Notes: generated by a model from the letters alone, not told the origin. DNA of 63,596 nucleotides, filler included, from Candidatus Aminicenantales bacterium (GCA_049515535.1; 4 parts of 4 records of this genome joined end to end with filler, not necessarily neighbours in it); one strand, 5' to 3'; positions 28,783 through 51,520 are shown, counted from the whole stretch's first letter. Numbers and translations: made by a program.

Positions 28783-29040
28783 ATCCCGGGGCAAGTCGTC
28801 TCGGGGCTGAAGAGAGCGGCGCTGGGCGGCTGATAATCGATTTCTGGATATAATTTCTGGACCTTTGGGGCAAGTCGTCTCGGGAAAGAGCGGCGCTGGC
28901 GGCTGAATCTCATCTTCAAGACGTGGTTTCAGGATGTCCCGGGCAAGGAGGAGAGGGGGGAAGACAGAGAGCGACGCTGGCGGCTGAATATTTAATTTCT
29001 GGACGTGGCTTCAGGACATCCTGCGGCAAGGGGGGAAAAG
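28783..29040 (+). repeat. Cluster 1 of ~77-bp tandem repeat family (3 units + partial)
   Basis: GGCAAG anchors at 28790, 28869, 28942, 29025; consensus GGGCAAGTCGTC(TC/GA)GGGG-purine tract-GCGGCGCYGGCGGCTGAWTATCGATTTCTGGACGTGATTTCAGRACATCCC. Confidence 0.9.
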
Positions 29041-29140
29041 CGGATTTTCGATGACTATAGAGCGCATTTTTTGCTAAGCCTTGACAACCGATAAATTAAA
29101 GGAGATAAAATATTTTAGGATTAATCATCGGAGGAAAAAA

Positions 29141-29473
29141 ATGAACGAATACCCGGAGATGGTAACGTGTTTGCCACAAGCAGACATCGCATTCAAAGGT
29201 CTTCAAGGATGGATTTTCCAAGGCAAAGATCAACAGATCGTCTTTATGCAAATCGAGCCAATTGGAAAGGTGACGGAACACGCCCATAGAGCCCAATTCG
29301 GAATGGTCCTCGACGGAGAGATGAGCCTAGCCATAGGAGGCGTAACGAGAATATATCGGAAGGGGGATACGTATTTCATCCCAAAGGGCGTGCCTCATTC
29401 GGCAGTATTTCATTCGAAAGTATTTGTCGTTGATTTCTTTGACGAGCCAGCGAGATATAAGGAAAAATCCTGA
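29141..29473 (+). CDS. Cupin domain protein
   Basis: EHAH..QFG.V..G..., GD.YFIP.GVPH; GGAGG RBS. Confidence 0.85.
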   Translation: MNEYPEMVTCLPQADIAFKGLQGWIFQGKDQQIVFMQIEPIGKVTEHAHRAQFGMVLDGEMSLAIGGVTRIYRKGDTYFIPKGVPHSAVFHSKVFVVDFFDEPARYKEKS

Positions 29474-29529
29474 TAAAGTTGGCGATTTTCCAGGAAGTGA
29501 TCAGAGAAGGTGGAGGCAAAGGAGCTGAT

Positions 29530-29762
29530 AGAAGCGGCGGCATCGTATGGATTTCTATATATGGTTTAGGAGCAATCCAGGTAAGTCGTCGAGGGGAAAA
29601 GAAAGAGAGCGCTGGCGGCTGAATATCGATTTCTGGACGTAATTTCAGGATATCCCGGGCAAGTCGTCGAGGGGTAAGAGAGCGGCGTCGGCGGCTTAAT
29701 ATCGATTAGAAGACGTGATTTCAGAACATCCTGGGCAAGTCGGAGGAAAGAAAGAGGGAGGA
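29530..29762 (+). repeat. Cluster 2 of tandem repeat family
   Basis: Anchors at 29580, 29658, 29734. Confidence 0.9.
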
Positions 29763-31129: not shown

Positions 31130-31387
31130 AGGGCAAATAAAGCGCAGGCGCTAGCCATAATCCGTCGTATTTTTTTGCATTATTCTAAAATCACTCAAAT
31201 GAGGATTTATACTTTTCGTTGATTAAATATTCGAAATATTTATCAATAGATTACGAGCTCCTTTTTATCTTCCTCCCCTTATCCGGCCCAATCTCAATCA
31301 TCCTAGAGTGCTGGAGTTCAAGAAAGATGAGCAAAGCTTTCTTTTAGCTCGCGATCGACATGGCCATTTTCCAGCACGAGAAATCAA

Positions 31388-31642
31388 GAACAAGTCGTCT
31401 CGGGGAAGAGCGGCGCCAGCGGCTGATTATCTGATTATCGATGGTTTCGGAACATCTCGGGCAAGTCGTCGAGTGGGCTGGAGAGAGCGGCGCCGGTGGC
31501 TGATTATCGATTTATAGATGTGATGTCAGAACGTCATTGGCAAGTCGTCGAGGGGGGAAGAAATATCGACGGCATCTGATTATCGATTTATTGTGGAATT
31601 TTCAAGACGTCCTTGGGCAAGAAGGAGAAAGGGGGGAAGAAC
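31388..31642 (+). repeat. Cluster 3 of tandem repeat family
   Basis: Anchors at 31389, 31460, 31539, 31616. Confidence 0.9.
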
Positions 31643-31891: not shown

Positions 31892-34831
31892 ATGAGTGTT
31901 TGTAAAAAACTTCAGATGCCGTGGTTCTTGTCGGTTTTGGTGGTCACGCTCTGCGTGGCTGCCGCAACTCCGCAGGTTGCTCAAAACGCCGCCCAAATTG
32001 ACTCTGCGGCGCAGGCGCAAGCTAAGTCCTTGTCGCTTGCGCAGGCAATGCCCGTCGATCCGCAAATTACCATAGGCAAGCTCCCCAATGGGCTCCGCTA
32101 TTACATCCGGACAAATAAATTACCTGAGAAACGGGCGGAGCTGCGTCTTGCGGTGAACGCGGGCTCCGTGCTCGAGGACAACGACCAACTCGGCCTTGCG
32201 CACATGGTCGAACACATGTCTTTCAATGGCACGAAACATTTCGAGAAGCAGCAGATTGTCAATTTCATGGAGTCGATTGGGATGCGCTTCGGCCCCAGCC
32301 TGAACGCATTCACGAGCTTCGACGAAACGGTCTACATGCTTACGATTCCAACCGACAAGCCGGAGCTGATGGACAAGGCGTTTCTGGTTCTCGAGGACTG
32401 GGCGCAGAACCTCTCCTTCGATCCGACTGAGATCGACAAGGAGCGCGGCGTCATAGTCGAAGAATGGCGGCTGGGCCGGGGCGCTAACGCCAGGATGCAG
32501 GACAAGCAGTTTCCAATCCTGTTCAAGGGCTCCCGCTACGCCGATCGTCTTCCTATCGGCAAAAAGGAAACCATCGAGACGTTCAAGCACGATGTGCTCA
32601 AGCGGTTCTATAAGGACTGGTACCGGCCGGACCTGATGGCCGTAATCGCCGTCGGAGACTTCGACAAGGCCGCTGTAGAGGGCCTCATTAAGCAACATTT
32701 CGAGTCGATTCCGGCGGCGAATGTTCCCAGGCTGCGGCCAACGTACAATGTCCCCGACCATCCAGAGACCCTATACGCGGTCGCTACGGACAAAGAAGCA
32801 ACCATGACGTCAATCTCCGTTTACAACAAGATGCCACTGCGCGAGCAGGGTACCGTGGGAGTCTACCGGCAGATGATCTTGGACCGGCTCGCTGCCGGCA
32901 TGCTTAGCCGCCGACTATCTGACATGACTCAAAAGCCGGACGCCCCCTTTGTCATGGCCGGCGCAGGCCGGTCGATTTTTGTCCGCACGAAGGAAGCGGC
33001 GATGCTGTACGCGATCCCCAAGGAGGGCGGCATCGAGCGTGCGTTGGACGCGCTCTTGACAGAGGCGGCCAGGGTTGCACGGTTTGGCTTTACTGCGACG
33101 GAGTTCGAGCGCGAGAAGCTGCAAGCGTTGCGGACATACGAGCGGTATTACGCCGAGAAGGACAAACAAGAGTCCGCGGTCCTGGCTGCCGAGTTCATCC
33201 GGAATTTCACGCAGAACGAACCGTTGCCCGGCCCCGCTCTGGAATATGCCCTCTATCAGCGGTTTCTACCCGAGATCACGATCGATGAGGTCAACAAAGT
33301 TGCAAAGGACTGGATGAGTGAATCGAGCCGGGTTGTGGTCGTAAGCGCTCCTGAGAAGGACGGCGTGACCGTGCCGGACGAAACGAAGCTTGCGGCCGTG
33401 GTTAAGGGCGTCGGGACAAAGGAGATTGCCGCGTATGTTGACACCGTCGCCAACCAGGCACTCCTCGACAAAATGCCTGAGCCGGGGAAGATTGTAAAAA
33501 CCACCTCCAAGGAAGCGTTCGGCATCACGGAGTGGGATCTCTCGAACGGCGTGAAAGTCGTGCTCAAGCCGACAATATACAAGCAGGACGAGATTGTGTT
33601 CCGTGCGTTCAGTCCCGGTGGCTATCAGCTTGCGAGCGACCAGGACTTTATTCCTGCGAGAACCGCCGCCCAGGTGATGTCCGTCACGGGTGTGGGCAAA
33701 TTCAGCGCGATCGATCTCCGGAAGATGCTTGCCGGCAAGATTGCGTCCGTGGGAGCACTGATATCTGAGATGGAAGAAGGGTTGAGCGGAAGCGGCTCGC
33801 CGAAAGACCTAGAGACGATGTTTCAGCTTATCTATCTGAGGTTCACACAACCGCGTGCGGACCAGGGGGCCTTTGCTGCGCACATCGCCCAAGGGAAGAC
33901 GATCCTGGCCAACCAGCAGAGGAGCCCCGAATGGGCGTTCAACGAGACGCTGCAGAGGACCCTGACGCAGGACCACCCTCGAGCGCGCCCGATGACGGCT
34001 GAAATGATCGACCAGATGGATCTCGACAAATCGCTCGCCTTCTACAAGGACCGGTTCGCCGATGCCGGCGACTTTACCTTCGTGTTCGTAGGGAGCTTCA
34101 CCGTGGAGATGATAAAACCGTTTGTCGAACGGTATCTCGCGTCGTTGCCCGCCCTGCACCGGAACGAAACCTGGAAGGACGTGGGAATCCGACCGCCGAA
34201 AGGCGTGGTCGAGAAGACCGTCCTGAAGGGCATTGAGCCCAAGAGCCAGGCGGCCGTCTTCTTCACTGGACCGTTCCAGTACGATCAAGAGCATCGCGTT
34301 GCGATCCGAGCCTTGAGCATGATCTTGGAGACGAGGCTTCGTGAGGTGCTGCGTGAAGATCTGAGCGGGACTTACGGCGTCAGCGTATCGTCAAATTACA
34401 CAAAGATCCCGACCGAGACGTACACCTTCCCGATCCAATTTGGCTGCAATCCGCAGCGCACGCAGGAACTGGTCAAGGTCATTTTCCAGGAGATCGAGAA
34501 TCTGAAGAAAAACGGTCCCAGCGAGAAACAGGTCAGCGACGTAAGGGCGCAGCTAATTCGGGATTTTGAAACGAACATGCAGCAGAACAGTTATCTGTTG
34601 AGCCAGATCTATCTCCGGTACCAGTTCCCGGAGGATCTCGGGAAATTTTTCGGTCTGCCCGAATACTACAAGACCCTGAATGCAAAGATAATTTGGGATG
34701 CGGCCCGCACGTATCTCAACACGGATAACTATGTGAAGGTCTTGCTGCTGCCGGAGGTAAAGTCCGCGGCTCGCTCTGTCGAAAGAGATCGGGACGATGA
34801 GCCGGCCATCGAACAGCGACCGGCCGCCTGA
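31892..34831 (+). CDS. pqqL: M16 zinc protease (PqqL-like), secreted
   Basis: GKLPNGLRYYI, GLAHMVEHMSFNGT (HxxEH), NAFTSFDETVY, LSNGVKVVLKPT. Confidence 0.88.
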   Translation: MSVCKKLQMPWFLSVLVVTLCVAAATPQVAQNAAQIDSAAQAQAKSLSLAQAMPVDPQITIGKLPNGLRYYIRTNKLPEKRAELRLAVNAGSVLEDNDQLGLAHMVEHMSFNGTKHFEKQQIVNFMESIGMRFGPSLNAFTSFDETVYMLTIPTDKPELMDKAFLVLEDWAQNLSFDPTEIDKERGVIVEEWRLGRGANARMQDKQFPILFKGSRYADRLPIGKKETIETFKHDVLKRFYKDWYRPDLMAVIAVGDFDKAAVEGLIKQHFESIPAANVPRLRPTYNVPDHPETLYAVATDKEATMTSISVYNKMPLREQGTVGVYRQMILDRLAAGMLSRRLSDMTQKPDAPFVMAGAGRSIFVRTKEAAMLYAIPKEGGIERALDALLTEAARVARFGFTATEFEREKLQALRTYERYYAEKDKQESAVLAAEFIRNFTQNEPLPGPALEYALYQRFLPEITIDEVNKVAKDWMSESSRVVVVSAPEKDGVTVPDETKLAAVVKGVGTKEIAAYVDTVANQALLDKMPEPGKIVKTTSKEAFGITEWDLSNGVKVVLKPTIYKQDEIVFRAFSPGGYQLASDQDFIPARTAAQVMSVTGVGKFSAIDLRKMLAGKIASVGALISEMEEGLSGSGSPKDLETMFQLIYLRFTQPRADQGAFAAHIAQGKTILANQQRSPEWAFNETLQRTLTQDHPRARPMTAEMIDQMDLDKSLAFYKDRFADAGDFTFVFVGSFTVEMIKPFVERYLASLPALHRNETWKDVGIRPPKGVVEKTVLKGIEPKSQAAVFFTGPFQYDQEHRVAIRALSMILETRLREVLREDLSGTYGVSVSSNYTKIPTETYTFPIQFGCNPQRTQELVKVIFQEIENLKKNGPSEKQVSDVRAQLIRDFETNMQQNSYLLSQIYLRYQFPEDLGKFFGLPEYYKTLNAKIIWDAARTYLNTDNYVKVLLLPEVKSAARSVERDRDDEPAIEQRPAA

Positions 34832-34849
34832 AGATAACAAAAGCAGGGA

Positions 34850-35105
34850 TCGGGGATTGCCAAAGCAGAAGATCTTGCCCGTCAGCTTATTATCGGTCAC
34901 GTCGAAAAACCCTAAAGTCGCGACGAACACCTTGCCGCCGTAGAGGACCAGAGTCGGTGCCGAGAACATGCTGTCCAGAGCGGAGAGTCCGCGAGACCAG
35001 ATCGGCTTCGCGTCGACGGCTCTGATGCATGTTACGATGCTGTCTCGGCCTTTTATCCATTTTGAAGACCCAAAGTCAGTTTTCGCGGCAACCCCGATTT
35101 GGACA
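34850..35105 (-). pseudogene. 3' fragment of a PQQ-repeat beta-propeller gene
   Basis: Open frame ...VTCIRAVDAKPIWS...SAPTLVLYGGKVFVATL...GKIFCFG running back into repeat cluster 4 with no upstream gene start. Confidence 0.5.
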
Positions 35106-35280
35106 GAGAGGAAAGGGGGAAGGGGAAATCGGCGGCTGATTATTGATTTTTAAATGAAGTTCCAGAACATCCCGGGCAAGTCGGAGGGGGGGAAGACAGA
35201 GGGCGGCGCCAGGCGGCTAATTAGAGATTTCTGGAAATAACTTCAGGAAACCGAGGGCAATTCGGAGAGGGGGAAGAATT
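35101..35280 (+). repeat. Cluster 4 of tandem repeat family
   Basis: GGCGGCTGATTATTGATTT...; anchors at 35175 and 35256. Confidence 0.85.
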
Positions 35281-35366
35281 CTCACTATAAAGAATGAAAT
35301 GAAACCTCGAGTTGACAAATTAGAAAATAGATTTATGCTTAGAATGAACACAAAGGAGAGAGGGTA

Positions 35367-35642
35367 ATGAAATCTAAGTTTTGGGCGCCGGCTATAGGCT
35401 GCGCTTTTATATCTTTCATCATTTTATGGATCGCGATAGAGGAAATCTTCTCCTCGATTCCTCCTTCCCGTGTCCATGTCTTGGGTTACCAAGTGGCTGG
35501 CATCCTCGCTTTCGTAGGAATAGCGGGAATCGCCATAGGGATCAAAATCTTGAAAAAGAGGCAACTGCTTGCTGCCGGGCTGATTGGCTTCTTTCTTGTT
35601 CCTGTTGTCATTGCGATTATAGTCTTCATTTTTGGCCCTTAA
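35367..35642 (+). CDS. Small 3-TM membrane protein
   Basis: 91 aa hydrophobic ORF; TTGACA-N16-TATGCT promoter at about 35312; RBS present. Confidence 0.7.
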   Translation: MKSKFWAPAIGCAFISFIILWIAIEEIFSSIPPSRVHVLGYQVAGILAFVGIAGIAIGIKILKKRQLLAAGLIGFFLVPVVIAIIVFIFGP

Positions 35643-35734
35643 TTCTATTAATGACAAGGGTACTTTAATAGATTTTCAACTACCTTGTGATCGTTCCACA
35701 TCCAGCCTCTCGGGCGCTAACGATTAACATTTTT

Positions 35735-35845
35735 GGCAAGTCGTCTCGGGGAAGCGGCGCTGGGCGGCTGAATATTGATTAGAAGACGTGATTTCATAGC
35801 GACTAGGGCGAACGAACGGCGGCTGGGCGGATGATTATGAATCTA
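35735..35845 (+). repeat. Cluster 5 of tandem repeat family
   Basis: GGCAAGTCGTCTCGGGGAAGCGGCGCTGGGCGGCTGAATATTGATT... Confidence 0.85.
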
Positions 35846-35978
35846 TTGACATTAGTCTTTGGCCGGGGATATCATTTTTTCGCGAGGGAGGTTGATGCGC
35901 TCTCAAGCGAGGATGGGCCGTCAGGTGTGCGCATAATCAGTGGAGAGTGGCTCGCCCGCTTGAAACGATGAGGTGATC

Positions 35979-36608
35979 ATGGCTTCCCACAGGAAATACT
36001 TCCCGGCGGCAGGACTGGACTGGGCTTTGCCCATCTACGATCCGTTGGCCAAGCTGCTGGGCGGTGACGCGATCTGGAGTGCGTTTGTTGAGCGGATGGA
36101 GCTTGCGCCCGGCCAGCGCTTCCTCGATATCGGTTGCGGTACCGGCACTTTGGCCGTGCTCATCCAGCAGCTTCATCCAGGCGTCGCCGTCGTCGGACTC
36201 GATCCCGATCCCAGGGTGCTCGTCCGCGCAGCACGCAAAGCCGAGTGCGCCGGCGTTGAGGTCCACTTCGACCGGGGTTTTTCGGACCAACTTCCCTATG
36301 CCGACGCCTCCTTCGACCGCGTGTTCTGCAACATTTTCAGCCTTCTTCCGCACGAGGAGAAAGAAACAACGCTCGGCGAAGTGCGCCGCGTGCTGAGGCC
36401 CGGCGGCTCGTTTCATCTCGTCGATATGGTGAAGGCGCCCTCCGGTTTCTCTTTCTGGCGTCTGTTTAAGCGCACCCAGCGTTTTGAGTTCTGCACTGAG
36501 GAGCAAATTTTCGACCTGATGCGTGAAGCCGGGCTAACTGACCCGAGAAAAACCGGCGAATACAAGGTGTGGTTTTGGCCCTTCGTCAACTACCAGGCCT
36601 CTCGATAA
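35979..36608 (+). CDS. Class I SAM-dependent methyltransferase (UbiE-like)
   Basis: LDIGCGTG, LPYADASFDRV and RRVLRPGG motifs. Confidence 0.88.
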   Translation: MASHRKYFPAAGLDWALPIYDPLAKLLGGDAIWSAFVERMELAPGQRFLDIGCGTGTLAVLIQQLHPGVAVVGLDPDPRVLVRAARKAECAGVEVHFDRGFSDQLPYADASFDRVFCNIFSLLPHEEKETTLGEVRRVLRPGGSFHLVDMVKAPSGFSFWRLFKRTQRFEFCTEEQIFDLMREAGLTDPRKTGEYKVWFWPFVNYQASR

Positions 36609-36643
36609 TCTGCGACCGGGCCGGTACGCTCCACGGGCCCACC

Positions 36644-36670
36644 GAAGGGAAAGCGGCGCCGGGCGGCTGT
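36644..36670 (+). repeat. Partial unit of tandem repeat family (cluster 6)
   Basis: GAAGGGAAAGCGGCGCCGGGCGGCTG. Confidence 0.6.
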
Positions 36671-36695
36671 GTCCTCTAGAAAGTGGTAAATCCCC

Positions 36696-37325
36696 CTATG
36701 CCTCTATGACATATCGGTTGTTGCAGCAGTCGTCCCCCTGCATGAGGGTCTTCGTCCGGATCATGCGCATCTTAGGATTGAAAGCTTTGGCCGACCCAAA
36801 ATCCGCGTAGCAGGAGAGGATGTAGCCGAGGTCGCCGGCGCTGAAGTCGCGGTAGGTCTTGGCCCAAAGACATTCGGTGACCTTGATTTCGAACGCCTGC
36901 GGCGTGTCCTCGATGATTTGGAACGTCAGCACGTTCTGATAGAAACTGTCGGGCTTGCGGAAGTTCTGGGTATACGTCGCCAGGTCATTCTTGCCCGCCT
37001 TCTTAGGGAATTCCGTCTTTTGTTGTTTTTTAGGCAGGTCAATAATGCGCTTTATCATCTCATGCAATTTCTCGCGCCCGATTTCTGTTTCGAGGCCTCT
37101 CCAGATCGTGATGGGAGCGACATAGGCTACAATGAAAACCTCTGCGAAGCTCAATCCCGAGTCCGCGAGAAACTTGTGCTTTTGGCCCGCGGCTTTGGCC
37201 TTTTGCTCTGCCTGGAACGCGCGAAGCAGGCATGGTGCTCCAAAGCACAACAGTGCGCCTCCGGGCAAGGCGGTCTTGAGAAAGGACCTCCGGCCGGACA
37301 GTAGCTGTGATTCGAGACTGTTCAT
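36696..37325 (-). CDS. L-2-amino-thiazoline-4-carboxylate hydrolase-like protein with Tat signal
   Basis: GRRSFLK twin-arginine signal; VTECLWA, C..D, RTKTLMQGDDCC motifs. Confidence 0.75.
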   Translation of the reverse strand: MNSLESQLLSGRRSFLKTALPGGALLCFGAPCLLRAFQAEQKAKAAGQKHKFLADSGLSFAEVFIVAYVAPITIWRGLETEIGREKLHEMIKRIIDLPKKQQKTEFPKKAGKNDLATYTQNFRKPDSFYQNVLTFQIIEDTPQAFEIKVTECLWAKTYRDFSAGDLGYILSCYADFGSAKAFNPKMRMIRTKTLMQGDDCCNNRYVIEA

Positions 37326-37469
37326 CGGAACCTCCTCTGCTTTCCCCCGAGTTATATGTTCAATATAGGCAGCGGAGTTGTGTCTGTCAACCAAGTTTAA
37401 TTTTCTTCTCGCAAGTGTGTTGGGGCAACGTGAATATTTCCGCTATGTCAATAGGCTATGATCTTTCAT

Positions 37470-37610: not shown

Positions 37611-37723
37611 AATTGATTTTAAGAGGAAAAGGACATATCTTATGGTTTATGAATTTCGATGATGAAGCGGGGGGACAGAAACGAAATGGAAAAAACGAGG
37701 CCGACACCCCGGAGAGGAAACTC

Positions 37724-42590: not shown

Positions 42591-42664
42591 GATAATCTAT
42601 GTGTTTATCAGCTTAATTCTATAACAGAGGCGCAATCTTTTCAAATGGTAATATTGTTTTCAAT

Positions 42665-42850
42665 CGTGCTTTCAGAACATCTTCGGCAAGTCGCCTCGGA
42701 GAAGAAAGAGGAGCGAAGCCGGGCGGCTGAATATCGATTAATAGACGTAATTTCATCTCAGGGCAAGTCGCCTCGGGGCAAGAGAGCGGCGCCGGGCGGC
42801 TTACTATCTGGCGAAATTTAAGAACATCCGGGCAAAGAGGAGAGCGGAAG
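42665..42850 (+). repeat. Cluster 10 of tandem repeat family
   Basis: Anchors at 42685, 42762, 42831. Confidence 0.88.
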
Positions 42851-42913
42851 GCGAATTGACGCTTCCTCGATTCTTTGATAATCTTGAGCCACACCTGATT
42901 GAAGGGGTCAGTA

Positions 42914-45397
42914 GTGACCGTCAAATGCCCGAAATGCCATTCTGAGAATTCTGAGACCAAGCAGTTCTGCGGAGATTGCGGCACCCCGCTTCCCTCCTCC
43001 AAAGAATTTCCTTTCTCTCAAACTGAGACGCTTCAGATGCCTATCAATGAATTGACCACCGGCTCGATATTTGCCGGCCGATACCAGATCATCGAAGAGA
43101 TGGGCCATGGCGGCATGGGCAAAGTCTATAAAGCGCTCGATACGGAAATCAAAGAAAAGATTGCCATCAAGCTCCTCAAGCCCGAAATCGCCGCCGACGC
43201 GGAGACCATCGAGCGATTCAGAAATGAGCTGAAATTCGCCCGCAAGATCCGGCATACGAACGTCTGCCAGATGTTCGACCTTGCCAAGAGCGAAAGCACG
43301 TATTACATCACCATGGAGTTCGTCCAGGGCGAGGACTTGAAGAGGCTGATCCGGAAAATGGGGCGATTGAGCGCCGGGCAAGCGATATCGATCGGCCGCC
43401 AGGTGTGTGAGGGGCTGGCCGAGGCGCATAAGCTGGGCGTCGTCCACCGCGACCTCAAGCCTCAGAACATCATGCTCGATGAGGACGGCCATGCCCGGAT
43501 CATGGATTTCGGCATCGCCCGGTCCATCAAGGCCAAAGGGATCACCGGTGCCGGCGTGATAATCGGGACACCGGAATATATGTCGCCGGAGCAGGTCGAG
43601 GGAAAAGACACGGACCAGCGCTCAGATATTTATTCGCTGGGAATCGTCTTATACGAGATGGTCACTGGGCGCGTCCCTTTTAAAGGCGATACGCCGTTCA
43701 CGGTCGGGATCAAGCACAAAAGCGAAATGCCGAAAAATCCCAGGGACCTCAATGCCCAAATCCCCGAAGACCTGGGCCGGCTGATCTTGAAATGCCTGGC
43801 CAAGGATAAAGACAAGCGCTACCAGAGCGCGGACAACGTGGCCGCGGGTCTAGCTCAAATCGAAAAGGCGCTTCCGACCACGGAAAAGCTCATTCCCAAA
43901 AGAAAGCCGAGAGTTGGGAAAGGCGAAGGAGCGGAGGGGAAAAAATACCTTCTTTATGGGGCCATCTTCGTCTTGGCGGTTTTGGTCGTTGCCGCCGGAA
44001 TCTTCTTGTTCAGGGGAAGGGGCAGGGCGATCACTTCCATTGCCGTCATGCCCTTCGGCTTTACGGGCGGCGGCCCAGATGCGGAATACTTGGCCGAAGG
44101 CATGACCGAAAGCATCATCGGCAACCTCTCCCAACTTCCCGGCCTGAAAAAGGTCATCGCCCGAAGTTCGGTCTTTCATTACAAGGGCAAAGAGATTATT
44201 CCCAAGGACGTCGGCCAGGAGCTCGGCGTGGACGCGATCCTGATCAGCCGGATGAATCAGCGCGGAGACGAGCTTTCGATCAATGTCGAGCTCGTCAACA
44301 CGTCGGATAACAGCCGCATCTGGGGCCATCAGTATAAGAAGAAAGCCGCGGAGGCCTTCGATTTCCAGCAGGAAATTTCGAACTCCATCGCCGAAAATCT
44401 TCGACTGAAGCTCACGGGCCAGGACATCCAGCGGATCGCCAAACGCTCCACGACGAGCCCGGAAGCCTACCAGGCCTATGTTCGAGGCCGGTTTTTCTGG
44501 AACAAACGGACGGAGGAAGGGCTGAAAACGGCCATCGAATATTTCAAACAGGCCGCCGAGAAAGACCCGAATTATGCGCTGGCCTATGCCGGCCTGGCTG
44601 ATTCGTATTCGACTCTCCCTCAATACAGCTCGTTCCCGCCGAAAGAAGCCTTCGAAAAAGCGAGAGCGGCCGTGGCCAGAGCCCTGGAATTGGATGACCG
44701 GATCGCCGAAGCGCACACGGCCTTGGCCGATATTCTTACGTACGAGGATTGGGATTGGGAGGGGGCCGAGAAGGAGTTCAAACGGGCCATCGAGCTCAAT
44801 CCCAACTACGCGACGGCCCATCATTGGTATGCCTTTATTCTGATGTTCATGGGCAGATTCGAGAAATCCATCGAACAGATCGGCCAGGCTCAGGAACTGG
44901 ACCCCTTATCGCTCATCATCAACGCGAATATGGGATTGATGCGCTATTACGCCCGCCGCTATGACGACGCGATCGGGTATTATCGCCGGGCGCTCGAGAT
45001 GGATCCGAATTTTGGCGAGATCCATTGGTATCTCGGGATGGCCTATGGCCAAAAAGGGCTCTTCGAAGAGACCGTCCAAGAGATGCAAAAGGCGGCGACC
45101 CTTTCCGGGGGGTTTCCCAAGCATCTGGCCTCCCTCGCCCATGCGTATGTCCTGGCCGGGAAGAAAGACGACGCCGTCAAAATAGCCAGGGATCTCGATC
45201 AAAGAGGAGAAGGAAAGTATAAAATGGCGGCTTATTATGCCGCCTTGGGCAATAAAGATCGTGCCTTTGAGTGCCTGGAAGAAGCTTATAAAGAGCGGTC
45301 GTCGGAAATTACGATCCTCAAGGTCGATCCCGCCCTCGACAGCCTTCGCCCGGACCCTCGTTTCAAAGCCCTGCTCAAGAAGATGAACTTCGAGTAG
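42914..45397 (+). CDS. Membrane Ser/Thr protein kinase: Zn-ribbon, kinase, TM, TolB-like and TPR
   Basis: CPKC..N....FCGDCG; G.GGMG.VY, HRDLKPQN, DFG, GTPEYMSPE; SIAVMPF; TPR repeats; GTG start. Confidence 0.92.
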   Translation: MTVKCPKCHSENSETKQFCGDCGTPLPSSKEFPFSQTETLQMPINELTTGSIFAGRYQIIEEMGHGGMGKVYKALDTEIKEKIAIKLLKPEIAADAETIERFRNELKFARKIRHTNVCQMFDLAKSESTYYITMEFVQGEDLKRLIRKMGRLSAGQAISIGRQVCEGLAEAHKLGVVHRDLKPQNIMLDEDGHARIMDFGIARSIKAKGITGAGVIIGTPEYMSPEQVEGKDTDQRSDIYSLGIVLYEMVTGRVPFKGDTPFTVGIKHKSEMPKNPRDLNAQIPEDLGRLILKCLAKDKDKRYQSADNVAAGLAQIEKALPTTEKLIPKRKPRVGKGEGAEGKKYLLYGAIFVLAVLVVAAGIFLFRGRGRAITSIAVMPFGFTGGGPDAEYLAEGMTESIIGNLSQLPGLKKVIARSSVFHYKGKEIIPKDVGQELGVDAILISRMNQRGDELSINVELVNTSDNSRIWGHQYKKKAAEAFDFQQEISNSIAENLRLKLTGQDIQRIAKRSTTSPEAYQAYVRGRFFWNKRTEEGLKTAIEYFKQAAEKDPNYALAYAGLADSYSTLPQYSSFPPKEAFEKARAAVARALELDDRIAEAHTALADILTYEDWDWEGAEKEFKRAIELNPNYATAHHWYAFILMFMGRFEKSIEQIGQAQELDPLSLIINANMGLMRYYARRYDDAIGYYRRALEMDPNFGEIHWYLGMAYGQKGLFEETVQEMQKAATLSGGFPKHLASLAHAYVLAGKKDDAVKIARDLDQRGEGKYKMAAYYAALGNKDRAFECLEEAYKERSSEITILKVDPALDSLRPDPRFKALLKKMNFE

Positions 45398-45572
45398 AAT
45401 TCGGCGCGAATCCATAATAGGCGAAGAAGGCATTTGGGAAAAATGAGACGACGAAATTTTTTCGGCGCTCTATCCGGCAGCCTCGTATCCTTAGAAAGCC
45501 TTTTTCATTCAGGGAAGACGATGAGTATCTTTAATGAAAATGTCGATCCATCCATGCCGCGCTGCATATTCG

Positions 45573-45600
45573 GGAACCTTTGCCGGCTCAAAAGGTATAA
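45573..45600 (+). promoter_or_regulatory. Putative ECF sigma (autoregulatory) promoter
   Basis: GGAACC-N16-GTATAA immediately upstream of the ECF sigma gene. Confidence 0.45.
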
Positions 45601-45629
45601 TAATATAGAGGCGAAAAATAACAGAATTC

Positions 45630-46181
45630 ATGGATGACCGGTTGCTCATCGAACAGTCCGCTCAAAGTAACACAAACGCCTTTAAACTCCTTGTTCTTCG
45701 TTACCAGCGGATGATTTTTTCTTATCTGAGAAATTTTCTGCTTCCGATGCAGGTCCAGGAGGATCTAGCCCAGGAAACATTCATGAGGGCCTACAGGAAT
45801 ATCACTGACTTTGATTCCGAAAAGGGGCCTTCCTTCTCGACATGGCTCATCACGATTGCCCGCAACCTGGCCATCAACGAAATGGCGAAGATGAGGCGAA
45901 GGAAGGCGCATTCTGGCGGATTCAGGGATGAAAATCATGGAAGGAATGAAAAAAGCCCTCAGGAAATCCTGGAACAACGCCATTTTAAATCCCGAATTCA
46001 CGACGCGATAAGTCGGCTGCCGGAAAAATTTCATACAGCGGTGGTCCTTTCCTACTTTGATGAGCTTTCGCTCGAAGAAATCGCGGGGATCGAAAATTGT
46101 CCCGTGGGAACTGTCAAATCTCGTGTCTTCCGGGGAAAACAGATCTTGAGACAAATTCTTGAAAGCGAGAATGTACTATGA
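45630..46181 (+). CDS. ECF sigma-70 factor
   Basis: AF..LV.RYQ, EDLAQETF, FSTWL.TIARN and EIA....PVGTVKSR motifs. Confidence 0.92.
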   Translation: MDDRLLIEQSAQSNTNAFKLLVLRYQRMIFSYLRNFLLPMQVQEDLAQETFMRAYRNITDFDSEKGPSFSTWLITIARNLAINEMAKMRRRKAHSGGFRDENHGRNEKSPQEILEQRHFKSRIHDAISRLPEKFHTAVVLSYFDELSLEEIAGIENCPVGTVKSRVFRGKQILRQILESENVL

Positions 46182-46555
46182 GTGATCCTCAGCGTCCCTG
46201 CCACCTGATTCAAGAGGATATTGCTTGGGCCAGAGGACTGAGCCCGGAGGACCAAAAACACGTTCTTTCCTGCAGCGCCTGTTCTGAAACCGCGGCTCGG
46301 TTCGAGGAGTTGGATTCCCTTGTCCGAAATGTGATGGGAGCGGATGTCCCAAACGGCTTCGCGGACAGGGTGGTTGTACAAATAGAAGCAGAAAAACGCA
46401 GAGGAGACAGCTTTTTCGCACGGCGGCGGCCTTTCTTGGAAAGGATATTCTTTTCGAGAGCTGTCCAATGGGCGCTCGTGGGAATCGGCTCGGCTTTCGG
46501 CCTGTTTAAAATTCTCAGATTCTTCGCCGGGGTGTTGATTCATGCATCTCTATAG
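46178..46555 (+). CDS. Putative zinc-binding anti-sigma factor
   Basis: H...C..C (HVLSCSAC), P.GFADRV and a C-terminal TM; overlaps the sigma gene by 4 bp. Confidence 0.75.
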   Translation: MSDPQRPCHLIQEDIAWARGLSPEDQKHVLSCSACSETAARFEELDSLVRNVMGADVPNGFADRVVVQIEAEKRRGDSFFARRRPFLERIFFSRAVQWALVGIGSAFGLFKILRFFAGVLIHASL

Positions 46556-46644
46556 CTTAGACAACCCGTCTGATTCAGAGCTGAAGGGAGTACGGCCCGT
46601 AAGATTAGACCGGGGGGAAAATGTGATTGTCCCGAGGAAAAGGA

Positions 46645-47592
46645 ATGGAAGAGAAAAAAGATAAATTCCGGGAAAGAAAACCTCTATTCGCCGTGGCCCT
46701 GTCCTTCCTTTTGACTGGTCTGGGCCAAGTCTACAACGGAAAACTGCGGAAAGGGATTCTCTTCTTTCTGGCCTCGTTCATCCTGCCCTTTCTCTTCTTC
46801 CAATTGAGTGTTCTGTGGCCCGGTCAGATACTAATGGTTTTTTTGGTCCTGTCCTTAGCGGCGAGCCTTGGCATATTTATTTGGGCTGCTCGAGATGCTT
46901 GGAAGCAAGCCAGAAGAATGGAAAAGAACTACAGGTTGAAAGTCTATAATAGGCTCACGGTCTACATCCTCCTCGTTATTGTATTGAATCTATTCACTTC
47001 CGGACTAATCGTGAATGGGCGGAAAATTTGCTTTTTCGCTCTCCCTTATCGAATGCAAACGGGAAGCATGGCGCCTGCTCTCCTTCCCGGAGATTGGATC
47101 ATAGTAGATAAGAGGATAGATCACGCGTCGAAAAACCTTGGCCTGAAAAGAGGGGAATTGGTGGTTTTTAAGTATCCCCGAAACAAGAAAATAGATTTTA
47201 TTAAAAGGGTCATCGGCCTTCCAGGAGATGAAATCGAATTGAGAGGGATGGAGCTTTACGTCAACGGAAAAAAATGGACAGCTCAAGAGGTGCCTCAGCT
47301 CGAAGAGAGACGGGATGAAAATATCAAGACGGGAACAATCGCTTTCTATGAAAAAGGCGACTCTGGGAATTATATCGTCTATTATCTTCAGGGGGCGGCA
47401 AGACAGGATTTGAGCGTTTCTGTACCGGAGGGCTACTGTTTTGTCCTCGGTGACAATCGTGATAACAGCGCAGATTCACGTCATTGGGGCAACGTCCCTC
47501 TCGATGATATTGTCTCCAGGGCTAGGCTGGTCTACTTTTCCATTGCTCCTGAGGGGGGAGTCCGATGGGGCCGGATCGGAAAGGTTCTGTAG
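46645..47592 (+). CDS. lepB: Signal peptidase I with N-terminal TM extension
   Basis: GSMAP.L..GD, FIKRVIGLPGD and GDNRDNS.DSR.WG motifs. Confidence 0.9.
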   Translation: MEEKKDKFRERKPLFAVALSFLLTGLGQVYNGKLRKGILFFLASFILPFLFFQLSVLWPGQILMVFLVLSLAASLGIFIWAARDAWKQARRMEKNYRLKVYNRLTVYILLVIVLNLFTSGLIVNGRKICFFALPYRMQTGSMAPALLPGDWIIVDKRIDHASKNLGLKRGELVVFKYPRNKKIDFIKRVIGLPGDEIELRGMELYVNGKKWTAQEVPQLEERRDENIKTGTIAFYEKGDSGNYIVYYLQGAARQDLSVSVPEGYCFVLGDNRDNSADSRHWGNVPLDDIVSRARLVYFSIAPEGGVRWGRIGKVL

Positions 47593-47921
47593 CGGAAGAC
47601 ACATGGTTCAGCCCGAGAGGCTGTCTCTCAACGGCTCTGATATGGCCAAGCTTGAGAAGAATAGAAAGGGACATGAATAAAAAGGAAAACAAGTTTGTGG
47701 GAATTTCTATTTGAGTTATTTTTAGAATTCTTAAGTTTAATTGGTCTGAAGAAAAAAGGGATCATCAAAAGATCATCCTGAGAAAGTCCTCACGCTCTGG
47801 AAGGATACTGATCCATTAAAATTAGGGAGGGAAGAGTGAAGAAATCACATGTTACCGGCATTTATGAAACGGAGAAAATCGAAAAGCTTATTACTGGGAT
47901 TGAAGAAGCATAAGGCGGATA

Positions 47922-48110
47922 GGGCGGGAGAGATAGTGGCGTCGGTGGTTGATTACTGATTTCTGGATATAATTTCAGGACACTCAGAGGCAAGTCGTCT
48001 CGGTGCAAGAGAGCGGCGCTGTGCGGTCGAATATCGATTTCGAGACGCGGTTTCAGGATACCCCGGGCAAGTCGAAGAGAGGAGAAAAGGGGCTAAGGAG
48101 GGGGGAGAGC
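47922..48110 (+). repeat. Cluster 11 of tandem repeat family
   Basis: Anchors at 47989 and 48066. Confidence 0.88.
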
Positions 48111-48169
48111 GAATTGACGCTCTCTCGATTCTTTGATACTCTTTAGCCATCCTTTTGAGGGGATAAGCC

Positions 48170-51100
48170 GTGGCCGTCACATGCCCGAAATGCCATTCCG
48201 ATAACCCCGAGACGCTTAAATTCTGCGGGGAGTGCGGCACGCACCTCTCCTCGCTCAAAGATATCCATCCCGAAGTCACGGAAACCATTCAAACGCCGAT
48301 TAAAGAGCTGACCACGGGCTCCACTTTCGCGGGCCGCTACCAGATTGTCGAAGAATTAGGCCATGGAGGGATGGGCACGGTGTACAAAGTCTTTGATATT
48401 GAAATCAAAGAGAAGATCGCCTTGAAGCTCCTGAGACCCGAAGTCGCCGCGGACGAGGACACCATCGAGCGGTTCCGCAATGAAATGAAGCTGGCCCGGA
48501 AAATCGGCCATAAATACGTCTGCCGGATGTATGACCTGGGAAGGGCGGAAGAAACCTACTTCATCACCATGGAATATGTCCCCGGCGAGGACCTGAAGAG
48601 CTTTATCAGGAGGTCGGGACAGCTGACGATCGGGAAGGCCGTCTATGTGGCCCGGCAGGTGTGTGAAGGGTTGGCCGAGGCTCACCGGCTGGGCGTCGTC
48701 CACCGGGATTTGAAGCCTCAGAACATCATGATCGACCGGGAGGGAAATGCCCGGATCATGGATTTCGGCATCGCCCGCTCGCTAAAGGCCAAGGGGATTA
48801 CGGGTGCCGGGGTGATGATCGGCACTCCCGAGTACATGTCGCCGGAGCAGGCGGAGGTCAAGGACGTCGACCAGCGGTCGGATATCTATTCGTTCGGGGT
48901 GATCCTTTATGAAATGCTTGTCGGCCGGGTGCCTTTTGAGGGGGAGACGCTGCTCGGCATCGCCATGAAGCACAAGAGCCAGCCGCCGCAGAATCCCAAG
49001 GAGCTCAATCCTCAAATTCCTGATGACCTCAATCGTATGGTCCTGAAATGCCTGGAGAAAAGCAAAGAGAAGAGATACCAGCGCGCCGAAGATATGCTGT
49101 CGGATATCGGAAAGATCGAGAAGGAGATTCCCACTACGGACAGGGTGATACCCAAACACAAAGGCTTTACCTCCAAGCAGATCACCGTCACCGTTGGCGT
49201 TAAGAGGCTGCTTCTCCCGGCGTTGATTTTTTTCCTGGTGGTTGCCGCAGGATTGATCTTATGGCGTGTCTTGCCCAAGAAACGCGCTGCCCCGCCGCCG
49301 TCGGGCAAGCCTTCGCTGGTCGTGATGTATTTCAAGAACAACACGGGCGATGCGAAGCTGGATCACTGGCGAGTCGCCATTTCCGACTTGCTTATCACGG
49401 ACCTGTCTCAATCGAAGTATCTCAAGGTTCTGAGCTCGGACAAGCTCTTCAATATCCTCAGCGAGATGCGCCAGGCCGACGCCAAAAACTTCACTTCGAA
49501 AGTCTTGAACGATGTCGCGGCGCGCGGCGGCGTCGCCAATGTCCTGGTCGGGAGCTATGCCAAAGCCGGCGAAAATTTCCGGATCGATGTCACTCTCCAG
49601 AAGGCCGGCAGCGGCGAGCTCGTGAGTTCCGAACGGGCGGACGGCAAAGGGGAGGACGGCATTTTTTCCATGGTCGATGACCTGACCAGAAAACTCAAGG
49701 CGGACCTGAAGCTCTCCTCGACCGAGCTCGCCTCGGATATCGACAAAAGCCTTAAACAGATTACGACGTCCTCTCCGGAGGCGTTCAAGTTTTATAGCGA
49801 AGGACGCCGGCTGAACGACGAGCAGGAGTATCGGCAAAGCATCGAAATAATGAAAAAAGCGATTTCCATCGACCCGGATTTCGCCATGGCTTATCGGTCG
49901 ATGGCGATGTCGTTATCCGACCTCAATTATTACTCGGAAAGCCGGGCGGCCCTCCAAAAGGCCTTTGAATTGAGGGCTCGCCTCTCGGACCGGGAGCGAT
50001 ACACCATCGAAGGGGATTTCTGCCGGGAATCGGAAAAATCCTACGGACAAGCGGTTGAGGCCTATCAAAAACTCTTGGAGCTCTACCCGGACGACGATAT
50101 CGGAATCACGAATTTGGGAATTCTCTATATCAATCTCGAGGAGTGGGATAAAGCCATCGAGCTCTATGAACGCGAGTTTCGCGCTAACCCGGAAGATATT
50201 TGGCCCTATCTGAACGTCGAATGCTATTTGGCCAAGGGAGATTATGAAAAAGCGAAAAGTCTGTTGGGTGGTTATATCCGGACCTTTAAAGATCATTACA
50301 TGATTCGCCTTTGGCTGGCCGCCATCGCTTTAATTCAAAACCAATATGACCAAGCACTCAGCGAGATGGAGCGGGTAGCGGTTTTGAATCCGTCCACCGT
50401 CTACAATCCCATGGCCAAGGGAATGATTTTTCAGGTTTCGAACCGCCTGCCTGACGCGGAAATGGAATACAAAAAATTGCTCGGCTTCGAAGAAAAGGTC
50501 GCTCACCTGATGAGCAAGAGTTATTTGGGATTGCTTTATTTGGAACAGGGAAGGTTCAAAGCTGCGGAAGAGCAATTCCGGGAAGGCCTCGAGCTGGCCG
50601 AGAAATATACGGATCGCGGCTGGGCCGCGGATTTCCATCTGCGCTTGACCCATCTCTATTTGGGGATGGGACGAGCCCGTCAAGCTTTGGAGGAAAGCGA
50701 TAAGGCCCTTCGGGAGGCCGTGGACATAACCAGTCTCGCCCGGCAGCGGGAGGCTTTCCTGCTCCGCGGTTTCGCCGAACTCGAGTTGGGATTGACAGGC
50801 GAGGCCCAGAAAACGGCCTCCGACTTGAAGGCGCTGGTGGATTCGGGATCCAATAAAAAAGCGATCCGGTATTATGACCTGCTTATGGGAACCATCGCTT
50901 TGAAAAAAGGACGCCCTTCCGAAGCCGTTGAGAATCTTGAGAGGGCTGCCGCTTCACTGCCCTTTCAATACGATGAGAATAATGACCAGGTCGTGTTTCT
51001 CGATGCTCTAGCCTCGGCGTATTCAAAAAAAGGCGATCTCGGCGCGGCCCGCGATGATTACGAGAAGATCCTCCCGCTGACGTGGGGACGATTGATTTAT

Positions 51101-51277
51101 AGCGATATCTTTGCCAGGAGCTTCTATCAGCTGGGGAAGATCTGGGAGCAACAGGGAGATAAAGCCAAAGCCTGCGAGAATTATCAGAAATTTCTGGACC
51201 TCTGGAAGGATGCCGACCCCGGCCGGCCCGAAGTCGCGGACGCCAGGAAGAGGATGGAGGAGCTGAAAACGCTGTAA
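48170..51277 (+). CDS. Membrane Ser/Thr protein kinase: Zn-ribbon, kinase, TM, TolB-like and long TPR
   Basis: Kinase motifs nearly identical to 42914-45397; TPR tail like 27031-28722. Confidence 0.92.
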   Translation: MAVTCPKCHSDNPETLKFCGECGTHLSSLKDIHPEVTETIQTPIKELTTGSTFAGRYQIVEELGHGGMGTVYKVFDIEIKEKIALKLLRPEVAADEDTIERFRNEMKLARKIGHKYVCRMYDLGRAEETYFITMEYVPGEDLKSFIRRSGQLTIGKAVYVARQVCEGLAEAHRLGVVHRDLKPQNIMIDREGNARIMDFGIARSLKAKGITGAGVMIGTPEYMSPEQAEVKDVDQRSDIYSFGVILYEMLVGRVPFEGETLLGIAMKHKSQPPQNPKELNPQIPDDLNRMVLKCLEKSKEKRYQRAEDMLSDIGKIEKEIPTTDRVIPKHKGFTSKQITVTVGVKRLLLPALIFFLVVAAGLILWRVLPKKRAAPPPSGKPSLVVMYFKNNTGDAKLDHWRVAISDLLITDLSQSKYLKVLSSDKLFNILSEMRQADAKNFTSKVLNDVAARGGVANVLVGSYAKAGENFRIDVTLQKAGSGELVSSERADGKGEDGIFSMVDDLTRKLKADLKLSSTELASDIDKSLKQITTSSPEAFKFYSEGRRLNDEQEYRQSIEIMKKAISIDPDFAMAYRSMAMSLSDLNYYSESRAALQKAFELRARLSDRERYTIEGDFCRESEKSYGQAVEAYQKLLELYPDDDIGITNLGILYINLEEWDKAIELYEREFRANPEDIWPYLNVECYLAKGDYEKAKSLLGGYIRTFKDHYMIRLWLAAIALIQNQYDQALSEMERVAVLNPSTVYNPMAKGMIFQVSNRLPDAEMEYKKLLGFEEKVAHLMSKSYLGLLYLEQGRFKAAEEQFREGLELAEKYTDRGWAADFHLRLTHLYLGMGRARQALEESDKALREAVDITSLARQREAFLLRGFAELELGLTGEAQKTASDLKALVDSGSNKKAIRYYDLLMGTIALKKGRPSEAVENLERAAASLPFQYDENNDQVVFLDALASAYSKKGDLGAARDDYEKILPLTWGRLIYSDIFARSFYQLGKIWEQQGDKAKACENYQKFLDLWKDADPGRPEVADARKRMEELKTL

Positions 51278-51384
51278 ATCCCCTGAACTTTTTTCCTGAA
51301 AAGAAGGGAATCAGAAAAAATCATGGTATGGTCTCAGCGATTCTATAATCGCCATCTCCATCGTCTCGCTCTTCTTGACGATCA

Positions 51385-51520
51385 ACATCCCTGGGCAAGT
51401 CGTCGAGGGTGAAAAAAAGGCGCCGGCGGCTGATGATCGATTTCTGGATATAGTTTCGGGAGACCCAGGGCAAGGAGGAGAGGGAGAAGGGGAAAGGGTA
51501 AAGGGAAAGCGGGAGGAGGG
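51385..51520 (+). repeat. Cluster 12 of tandem repeat family
   Basis: Anchors at 51394 and 51469, followed by a long polypurine tract. Confidence 0.88.

Follow-up and report, generated by a model that had tools for sequence, protein, structure and literature searches.

In the integron arrays of Vibrio cholerae, co-oriented attC repeats of 57-141 bp stand between unrelated cargo genes, promoterless or self-expressed, in a long array. At mycobacterial interspersed repetitive unit-variable number tandem repeat (MIRU-VNTR) loci, intergenic units of about 50-100 bp, some of a 77-bp class, are repeated directly and in tandem, with one to several copies at a locus and a copy number that varies between strains; the MIRUs proper lie inside operons, are oriented as the flanking genes and contain small open reading frames (ORFs) that overlap the flanking stop and start codons. 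The closest parallel to the repeat considered here is the Neisseria intergenic mosaic element (NIME) array, in which repeat sequence (RS) units are flanked by 20-bp dRS3 motifs that are targeted by a phage-encoded recombinase, as given in the excerpted account of PMC1797815. The present repeat lies in 63,596 nucleotides of DNA from Candidatus Aminicenantales bacterium (GCA_049515535.1), the whole of which is called the window, and consists of units of about 77 bp, all in one orientation, between genes of unrelated function. It sits in intergenic DNA of the horizontally exchanged flexible genome, often beside expanded Ser/Thr-kinase paralogues, and is read here, tentatively and with a little less than even confidence, as an old, non-coding, one-directional, NIME-like repeat that has no integrase of its own.

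The window joins four contigs with linkers of N and TTAATTAATTAA (C18 at 1-26929, C19 at 27030-52061, C24 at 52162-62009 and C29 at 62110-63596), taken from a metagenome-assembled genome (MAG), G000, of 3.45 Mb in 32 contigs and 94% completeness. The unit family was defined by iterated nhmmer searches over the whole 3.45-Mb genome, which converged at 53 matches, as against 54 for a sequence-only covariance model, R1, built from 30 units; the genome holds 33 clusters of 1-3 units each. Twenty-one units in 11 clusters fall within the window at 28791-51466, all on the + strand and all on C19, nearly the whole of which the array spans. Contig C6 has 17 matches, all + and confined to its first ~60 kb (831-60448), C8 has 13, all - and within its first ~6 kb (394-5853), and C3 has two, both +, with no unit found by nhmmer on C18, C24, C29 or any further contig of the genome. 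C8 and C19 each start within a kinase paralogue, and the repeats of C8 point towards the end of the contig, so that C6, C8 and C19 could form one island of ~90 kb. Within clusters the spacing is 72-82 nt and is not a multiple of three. A repeat scan of the window returned families of 8-15 copies, 60-78% alike and all direct, over 28.8-51.5 kb, and it is because the copies are just 60-78% alike that Tandem Repeats Finder sees a single array, at 29583-29742; for the 25-nt core of an earlier consensus, 0 chance matches are expected (100 shuffles).

An earlier note on this DNA, made from the sequence alone, had described about 12 co-oriented clusters of a ~77-bp repeat with a period of 69-83 bp. 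The array is real, with the cluster count corrected to 11 and the spacing to 72-82 nt. Borne out were the statements that units keep to the + strand whatever the strand of the genes (those for dCTP deaminase, the thiamine-binding protein and the ATC hydrolase are on -), that the other three contig pieces lack them, and that the cargo is functionally unrelated, Pfam assigning it to cupin, M16, methyltransferase, hydrolase, dcd, extracytoplasmic function (ECF) sigma/S26, kinase-TPR and other families. At the scale of the genome, too, the units cluster in islands on C19, C6, C8 and C3, each contig with a single strand, rather than being spread evenly in both orientations, and none of the outcomes that the note had named as refuting it was obtained.

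Aligned units have three parts, namely a GC-rich junction motif of ~17 nt (..AACATCCCGGGCAAGTCG..), a purine tract of variable length and a conserved AT-rich core (GGCGGCTGAWTATCGATTTCTGGA..TTTCAGRACA), and their consensus runs GGGCAAGTCGTC(GA/TC)GGGG, variable purine tract, then CGGCGCCGGCGGCTGAWTATCGATTTCTGGAYRTRRTTTCAGRACAYCCNGGGCAAG. They form two subtypes of one unit family, distinguished by linked variants in the 3' half. A cluster is laid out as a decayed istB 3' fragment, 0-5 units and a final junction motif with a purine tail, the last copy ending in GGGCAAG and the tail (often GGAGGAG..) in place of TCGTC.

Sequence comparison traces both the junction motif and the sequence lying 5' of many clusters to the 3' end of istB, a gene of an IS21-family insertion sequence (IS); the motif corresponds to the last conserved codons of that gene (I-N-I-x-G-K/N-S). 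One remnant comes from a relative (locus L025), where the DNA 5' of a unit translates to ..LTSNRSFSQWNEIFGDTVIATAILDRILHHSTTINIKGKS.., in a frame that reads ..LTSNRSFSQWNEIFGDTVIATAILDRILHHSTTINIKGKSERGKSRGEEGG followed by a stop. This fragment matches Pfam IstB_IS21 at positions 186-235 of 238 (E = 3e-18) and shares 76-83% identity with IstB frames that are intact (259-302 aa) in other Aminicenantes; its frame enters the unit (GGC AAG TCG = G K S) and is closed by the TGA of GGCGGCTGA. The element to which the intact frames belong encodes IstA (rve, Mu-transposase C domain) as well as IstB, and when the intact IS is used as an nhmmer query, matches that adjoin units begin at IS positions 1981-2012 and five of the six stop at the junction motif, near position 2115. 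A DNA model likewise extends from the units into istB remnants. In G000 the cluster remnants are weaker by tblastn (C8 1096-1007, E = 3e-5; C3 243842-243931, E = 0.003; C6 52200-52259, E = 1.7; C19 8643-8738, E = 4.3), and C6 19287-19349 (E = 1e-4) is a remnant to which no unit adjoins. Intact IstA/IstB queries found just two short remnants in the island of this genome, and a larger fragment at C3:92002-92316, far from any repeat. A degenerate type B remnant carries derived changes common to G000, G013 and G009, and so the remnant and unit spread together after coding capacity was lost.

The junction motif and 5' remnant are istB 3' coding sequence, but unlike an IS21-family element the repeat lacks istA, most of istB and the IS terminal repeats. 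Derivation of the whole unit by tandem duplication of istB codons was rejected, shuffles scoring as well in 59 of 500 cases for the unit, 140 of 500 for its first half and 430 of 500 for the core. A miniature inverted-repeat transposable element (MITE) of the IS21-family element was also rejected: intact copies end in two GGGTCAWTTTTC.ACGCCCA repeats, these right-end repeats are absent from the units, no inverted copies were found, and it is the absence of an inverted partner end that speaks against a MITE.

The repeat family was found only in Aminicenantes. Among 40 genomes of the same order (labelled G002, G013, G026 and so on), 15 have 1-7 R1 matches, under strict filters and with fragmented MAGs losing repeats. 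A 24-nt core has four exact matches in 185,579 species genomes, two of the four records being named Aminicenantes, and occurs at 65 metagenome loci in which R1 finds 252 units; removal of 10 duplicates and 4 G000-like loci gave a set of 50 independent loci, 277 kb in all, with 194 nhmmer matches in 111 clusters and up to five abutting units in a cluster (locus L104). A limited literature search on Aminicenantes intergenic repeats found no earlier description. The units are old. Pairwise identity averages 0.67 over 38 full units, with 0.86 for the closest pair, and adjacent tandem units are 0.69 alike (12 pairs) versus 0.67 for all other pairs (691 pairs), which leaves neither a recent burst nor concerted evolution.

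Orientation is uniform wherever units recur. No inverted copy was found by nhmmer within any G000 contig or any of the 50 metagenome loci, 34 of which have at least two matches, with none mixing strands, and 28 at least two separate clusters. Gene direction is not the cause of this co-orientation, because in the metagenome loci the repeat strand carries 101 kb of coding DNA and the opposite strand 81 kb. In closed genomes the top strand of the unit is the leading strand at nine of ten loci (6/6 in G013, 2/2 in G026, 1/2 in G039), the replichores of G026 and G039 being called from dnaA position only. In G013, with dnaA at 3.72 Mb, loci at 0.38, 0.455, 0.89 and 1.365 Mb are on + and those at 2.27 and 2.65 Mb on -, and GC skew has the expected sign in all nine sampled stretches (positive over 0.37-1.36 Mb, negative over 1.84-2.64 Mb). 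The unit strand of G000 is the positive-GC-skew strand on C19, C6, C8 and C3, and in the metagenome loci the repeat-oriented skew is +0.021 (positive at 24, negative at 12). These observations suggest, short of proof, that repeat orientation is linked to the direction of replication; co-orientation may result from integration at a resident copy that preserves orientation, or from a constraint tied to replication.

The surrounding DNA is a mosaic. Five of five relatives are colinear with a 20-kb control stretch of C18, at 65-80% identity, whereas the repeat-bearing 20 kb of C19 has its matches scattered over 4.3 Mb of G013, and many island segments are 84-97% identical to other genera. Window positions 45548-47640 are 94% identical to two places in G013, which belongs to another genus, and the left end of this segment is not at a repeat; C6 989-5080 (93% to G002) lies exactly between two clusters, C6 7770-11098 (93% and 91%) begins in a repeat-bearing gap, C6 42136-43050 (92%) includes its repeat, C6 48397-49204 (96%) has neither end at a repeat, and C3 238387-243934 (95% to G013) ends inside a cluster, just after the junction motif. 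At this last locus G013 has remnant, motif and tail with 0 units and G000 has one unit, the flanks beyond the tail differing. Module order also differs between the two genomes, being DUF2284, repeat and then directly a nitroreductase gene in G013, whereas in G000 5.3 kb of other genes intervene. Elsewhere in G013 a 2.9-kb duplication ends exactly at the start of a repeat's remnant, and the copy orthologous to one in G000 has decayed faster than the adjacent gene, like neutral DNA.

Strain X2, from an independent peat metagenome (~107-fold, ~99% identical), is colinear over 32061-40393, 40386-42117 and 42088-42991 of the window, the sole difference being ~180 extra bases of units at 35097/35098, at cluster 4. 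The strain comparison rests on assembled contigs rather than raw reads, and for gene order on run X2, runs X3-X5 being of low depth and too fragmentary. In Logan contigs, apparent jumps from one cluster to another (41091 to 42206, 35191 to 42204) were rejected as deletions; they are other unit copies, since their sides are only 21-31 letters long with extra letters between.

The junction motif is, in one relative, the target of a mobile element. G013 carries three identical copies of a 1.3-kb IS110-family element with a DEDD transposase by Pfam (L028 5410-6730, L030 8603-7283, L067 4681-5978), each inserted between CATCAAGG and GCAAGT, two of them in istB remnants and one in a unit. When the right ends of five variants of this element are aligned, two variable segments stand between invariant blocks, and in each variant the pair matches its own target, one segment the left half and the other the right half in reverse complement (CATCAAGG and GACTTGCC in G013); the match, judged by eye with no shuffle control, is exact in G013 and G026 and partial in G008, G000 and G040. 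The non-coding right end thus looks like a 3'-encoded guide RNA of the bridge type, and the segments fit the bridge-RNA mechanism published in PMC11208160. G013 would then provide a natural case in which an RNA-guided element of the IS110 type has been retargeted to a repeat of its host. The five variants have five different targets, and just the G013 variant targets the junction motif. Copies of the family in G000 lie at window 61589-62009 (C24 9428-9848, -), C16 2-995 and C1 201874-203174; they are 82-85% identical in DNA to the G013 copy, two of them end contigs, and they are inserted at ..AAATAGG|.. targets rather than at the repeat. IS110 was accordingly rejected as a general driver of the repeat, whose spread it does not explain because the G000 copies target other sites.

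Comparison with other repeat classes sets further bounds. At gathering threshold Rfam 15 reports only a tRNA at 12041-12115 in the window, and nothing at the repeats; over 38 units RNAalifold scores -0.99 on the forward strand and 0.0 on the reverse, which leaves both strands with essentially no consensus structure, and mutual information among unit columns reflects just neighbouring-column and subtype linkage. A structured RNA or riboswitch is ruled out by these results. A promoter is ruled out as well: none of 16 promoter-like (sigma-70-like) sites lies within a unit on the + strand, and where a co-oriented gene follows, the site sits between repeat and start codon; one - strand promoter-like site, at 37597-37570, overlaps the degenerate units of cluster 6. 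It is part of the favoured reading that the repeat acts at the DNA level and not as RNA.

Folded as single-stranded DNA, eight of eight unit strands do worse than shuffles (z +0.55 to +2.68), and attC boxes (RYYYAAC..GTTRRRY) occur in 0 of 66 cluster strands; the earlier note had already stated that boxes, strong hairpins and CRISPR-like spacers are lacking. An integron attC array is therefore rejected on the absence of boxes, hairpin and consensus structure. The resemblance to attC is that of co-oriented repeats between unrelated cargo genes in a long array, whereas the repeat lacks R and L boxes and imperfect inverted repeats, no IntI-type integrase is nearby, units stand in tandem without cargo between them, and cargo may comprise several genes on both strands. 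Units of 72-82 bp that abut head to tail without spacers and are 60-86% alike do not make a CRISPR array. The MIRU-VNTR loci are matched in being direct, tandem, intergenic and variable in copy number (1-3 in G000, up to five in L104, ~180 bases more in X2, 0 vs 1 at the C3 locus), unlike which the repeat stays on + between - strand genes and has a period that is not a multiple of three. Repetitive extragenic palindromic (REP) sequences, with bacterial interspersed mosaic elements (BIMEs) and REP doublets forming hairpins (REPINs), are likewise short, multi-copy, intergenic, lineage-specific and targets of IS110-family insertion, for which ISPpu9, inserting in REP sequences, is an example in the excerpted text of PMC12288879. 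Those families are palindromic and occur in both orientations, whereas the Aminicenantes repeat is hairpin-free and single in orientation; they were rejected, together with palindrome-associated transposable elements (PATEs) derived from IS200/IS605, since folding of both strands revealed no palindromic hairpin unit.

The likeness that survives is to NIME arrays. As in the excerpt of PMC1797815, intergenic arrays of 50-150-bp units are parted by a short, conserved, GC-richer motif, unit number differs between genomes, the arrays adjoin genes exchanged with foreign DNA, and the targeting of dRS3 by a recombinase is paralleled by IS110-family insertion at the junction motif in G013. The differences are that dRS3 is an inverted repeat and RS units fall into more than 100 families, whereas here one unit family is joined by a direct, non-palindromic junction; that strict single orientation and leading-strand bias are not among the NIME features given in that excerpt; and that the phylum is a different one and the junction motif comes from IS21 istB. 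The combination of istB descent, absence of structure, absolute orientation, leading-strand bias and concentration in the flexible genome of an uncultured phylum was not found described together.

On the favoured NIME-like reading, the repeat would supply stretches of conserved homology, dispersed among gene modules that are otherwise unrelated. Recombination between direct copies would change unit number and could duplicate, delete or swap the intervening modules, and site-specific mobile elements would use the junction motif as a place to land. The comparisons above show the anatomy, origin, age, polarity and distribution of the repeat, its mosaic context, the change in unit number between strains and the IS110 targeting in G013; that recombination between repeats shapes the array is what we infer beyond them.

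A number of results weigh against this reading. Direct evidence of recombination between repeats was not found; units 67% alike are poor RecA substrates, and homologous recombination alone does not predict the leading-strand bias. Repeats occupy 26 of the 57 intergenic gaps of the island (46%), and high-identity segments end in repeat-bearing gaps in 14 of 34 cases, no enrichment (p = 0.75). The X2 contigs cross seven clusters with the same cargo order, a result of one well-covered sample read from contigs. As to origin, the AT-rich core shows no significant alignment to intact istB, 430 of 500 shuffles scoring as well, and a unit-model search of the intact IS21-like copies found no unit in them. 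Conservation across unit columns is uneven, from 30% to 99%, which could mean a sequence-specific function, or else subfamilies combined with detection bias.

An unlikely, though serious, alternative is that the repeat is or was a selfish, non-autonomous element copied into new sites via one strand at the replication fork, by a single-strand or rolling-circle transposase or through reverse transcription from the 3' end of an RNA. Copies made in these ways share a fixed 3' end but vary at the 5' end, form multimers head to tail and keep to a single orientation within each replichore, and strand-specific copying would explain co-orientation and leading-strand bias together. The repeat does show leading-strand orientation at nine of ten closed-genome loci, a constant 3' end (junction motif plus purine tail) and 5' starts that vary (remnant model positions 2-34 and beyond), and the type B remnants, shared by three genera (G000, G013 and G009), spread as non-coding sequence once decayed. 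Of 41 genomes of the order, 25 have IS91-family (Y2_Tnp) transposase matches, up to 12 per genome, and truncated IS91 fragments abut the repeat, an N-terminal one 5' of it in G009 (L027 6100-6432) and a C-terminal one 3' of it in G032 (C66 7958-8074). Against this stand the lack of the hairpins that IS200/IS605-type elements need, the age of all copies with no recent burst, and the failure to find an enzyme or a source element with the AT-rich core. No simple insertion with both halves of a target gene was seen, nor any target duplication, duplications not having been searched for systematically. An IS91-family element carrying the repeat at its ends was rejected: the flanks of 14 loci around the best Y2_Tnp matches hold 0 units, even at E <= 5. 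The Y2_Tnp ORF family appears in 2 of the 50 metagenome loci.

The earlier note had favoured a cassette-like array in which the repeats serve as recombination or insertion sites. In its explicit form the repeat would be the att site of a recombinase encoded elsewhere, and circular one-repeat modules would integrate Campbell-style to build a co-oriented array. Much of the evidence is of the expected kind: co-orientation is absolute despite the 101 and 81 kb of coding DNA on the two strands, modules of different origin lie side by side, many of them 84-97% identical to other genera, module order varies (DUF2284-repeat-nitroreductase in G013, 5.3 kb of other genes in between in G000), short well-conserved blocks persist in diverged units as they would at protein-binding sites, and the junction motif is recognisable by a recombinase, that of IS110 in G013. 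The proposal stands as far as this insertion and the mosaic cargo are concerned, and falls short on the enzyme and on the segment ends. Pfam and protein scans found no recombinase in or beside the island, which holds IS debris of several families; the 11 PF00589 matches in G000 (a MAG 94% complete) include 0 in the island, the nearest being C6:89106, 29 kb past the last unit. No recombinase family recurs among neighbours at the 50 metagenome loci, where just two neighbour families exceed two loci, Ser/Thr kinases with 10 and a beta-propeller protein with 4.

Cargo synteny is not conserved among relatives, in 5/5 of which the C18 control is colinear, and order is different in G013; in the near-identical X2 it is the same. 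Segment ends are not enriched at repeats, and 1-5 tandem units with nothing between them are unexpected of att sites. Circular-module integration at a resident copy would explain co-orientation and not the leading-strand bias, which Campbell integration leaves unaccounted for. The cassette platform is on this showing rather improbable. A bolder version, to which we give a slim chance, would make the repeat the attachment site of a new Aminicenantes module-accretion system, unrelated to integrons, with a recombinase acting in trans (possibly RNA-guided and of IS110 type, like the enzyme of the G013 element), 90-kb arrays of horizontally exchanged genes and a replication-linked step that fixes polarity.

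A polar functional DNA site, with units or purine tracts bound by a direction-dependent host protein (an FtsK/SpoIIIE guide, a fork barrier) and the wrong orientation selected against, would account for the leading-strand bias and for the uneven conservation of columns, and is very unlikely all the same. The most strand-skewed 8-mers of the repeat-masked, GC-skew-oriented G000 are G-rich purine words (GAAGGGGA 162:64, AGGGGAGA 72:19, GGGGGAGA 66:20), and the relaxed word RRGGGGAR occurs in clusters 35 times on the top strand versus 0 on the bottom, in 24 of the 33 clusters. The exact skewed words, however, are each present in just 2-3 of the 33, and the enrichment is trivial because it follows from the purine tract; a Chi-like or other skewed word from the conserved core was rejected, none ranking high genome-wide among 27,696 words. 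The family is moreover confined to islands rather than spread along replichores, and the orthologous G013 copy decayed faster than its neighbouring gene. The skewed G-rich 8-mers are in their own right candidate FtsK/SpoIIIE-type polar sequences, or a by-product of ribosome-binding sites and gene-strand bias.

A transcribed cis-regulatory leader or small RNA acting on its neighbours, for instance through protein-binding GGA motifs or a ribosome-binding tail, is extremely improbable, for although the terminal copy often ends in AAGGAGG and several clusters lie upstream of co-oriented genes, orientation ignores gene strand, the distance from repeat to next start codon ranges from ~35 to 570 nt, promoter-like sites of the cargo genes lie downstream of the repeats, GGA is often GAA and no structure is conserved.

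Whatever its mode of spread, the repeat is a marker for flexible-genome islands in Aminicenantes MAGs, whose assemblies break at repeats, and an explanation of its polarity would bring to light a novel route by which gene arrays are assembled, or else a novel form of strand-specific DNA copying.

The 11 clusters of the window, all on + and all found by nhmmer, illustrate the range of layouts. Cluster 1 (28731-29039) has a decayed istB 3' remnant from ~28731, three units (28791-28864, 28870-28939, 28958-29021) and a purine tail, as judged also from an extended-model match (C19 1702-1833) and the flanking sequence. Cluster 2 (29583-29760), seen by Tandem Repeats Finder too and with a paralogous copy on C8, comprises two units (29583-29655, 29659-29731) and a terminal GGGCAAG with purine tail, and cluster 3 (31329-31640) a degenerate type B istB remnant, located with the extended model, and three units (31391-31456, 31461-31535, 31540-31612). 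Cluster 4 (35129-35270) holds two units, to 35251, the first 5'-partial; cluster 5 (35670-35796) an istB remnant (tblastn, extended model) and one unit, 35736-35796, that lacks its 3' end; and cluster 6 (37474-37579) two partial, degenerate units. Cluster 7 (40981-41165) consists of a remnant found with the extended model, one unit (41071-41144) and a tail. In the next three the flanking sequence was also used: cluster 8 (42129-42275) has two units, to 42248, the first partial, and an AAGGAGG-type tail; cluster 9 (42686-42829) has two units upstream of the promoter-like region of a kinase gene; and cluster 10 (47926-48090) has two, at 47926-48063, upstream of the corresponding region of the second kinase gene. 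Cluster 11 (51331-51515) ends the array with an istB remnant, one unit (51395-51466) and a long purine tail (flanking sequence, extended model).

Between these clusters Pfam identifies, on the + strand, the C-terminal TPR portion of a kinase-TPR gene that is truncated where the contig begins (27124-28722), a cupin (29081-29473), an M16 (PqqL-like) peptidase (31892-34831) and a methyltransferase (35973-36608). On the - strand follow an ATC hydrolase (36696-37394), dCTP deaminase (dcd, 41451-41951) and a member of the thiamine-binding protein family (42300-42590), the last two antisense to both of their flanking clusters. The + strand then carries a zinc-ribbon Ser/Thr kinase-TPR gene (42899-45397), an ECF sigma factor, putative anti-sigma factor and S26 signal peptidase (45548-47640, from Pfam and comparison with G013) and the second Ser/Thr kinase-TPR gene (48170-51277). 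The cargo of C6 and C8 is likewise accessory and includes efflux systems, M28 peptidases, MazE/PIN and ParE toxin-antitoxin genes, nitroreductases, Band7/NfeD, radical SAM enzymes and kinases.

The ECF sigma/anti-sigma/S26 module looks recently exchanged, and at its matching places in G013 a 2.9-kb segment is itself duplicated at 99%. The kinase-TPR paralogues have a common upstream region, GAATTGACGCTTCCTCGATTCTTTGATAATCTTGAGCC.. (window 42830-42900 and 48064-48170; also on C6 and C8 and at locus L009 of G040), and a conserved 3' end that encodes ..KDADPGLPEV.DA.KRL..; in G013 the kinase domain finds more than 40 matches, and kinase 3'-end fragments adjoin repeats there. On the + strand directly 3' of the unit at 41071-41144, the stretch at about 41190-41300 reads ..PGSPRENGYVESFIGKLRDELLNGEI.., which may resemble an IS3-family transposase in its C-terminal part. 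Another repeat, of ~50 nt, precedes cluster 8 at 42075-42131, with more than 15 matches in G018 and several in G002 at 84-92% identity. Two further direct repeats of two copies each are unrelated to the array, one on C18 (21056-21308 and 26713-26928, 92% identity), which contains a palindrome-rich stretch, and one on C24 (52162-52297 and 54341-54476, 99% identity).

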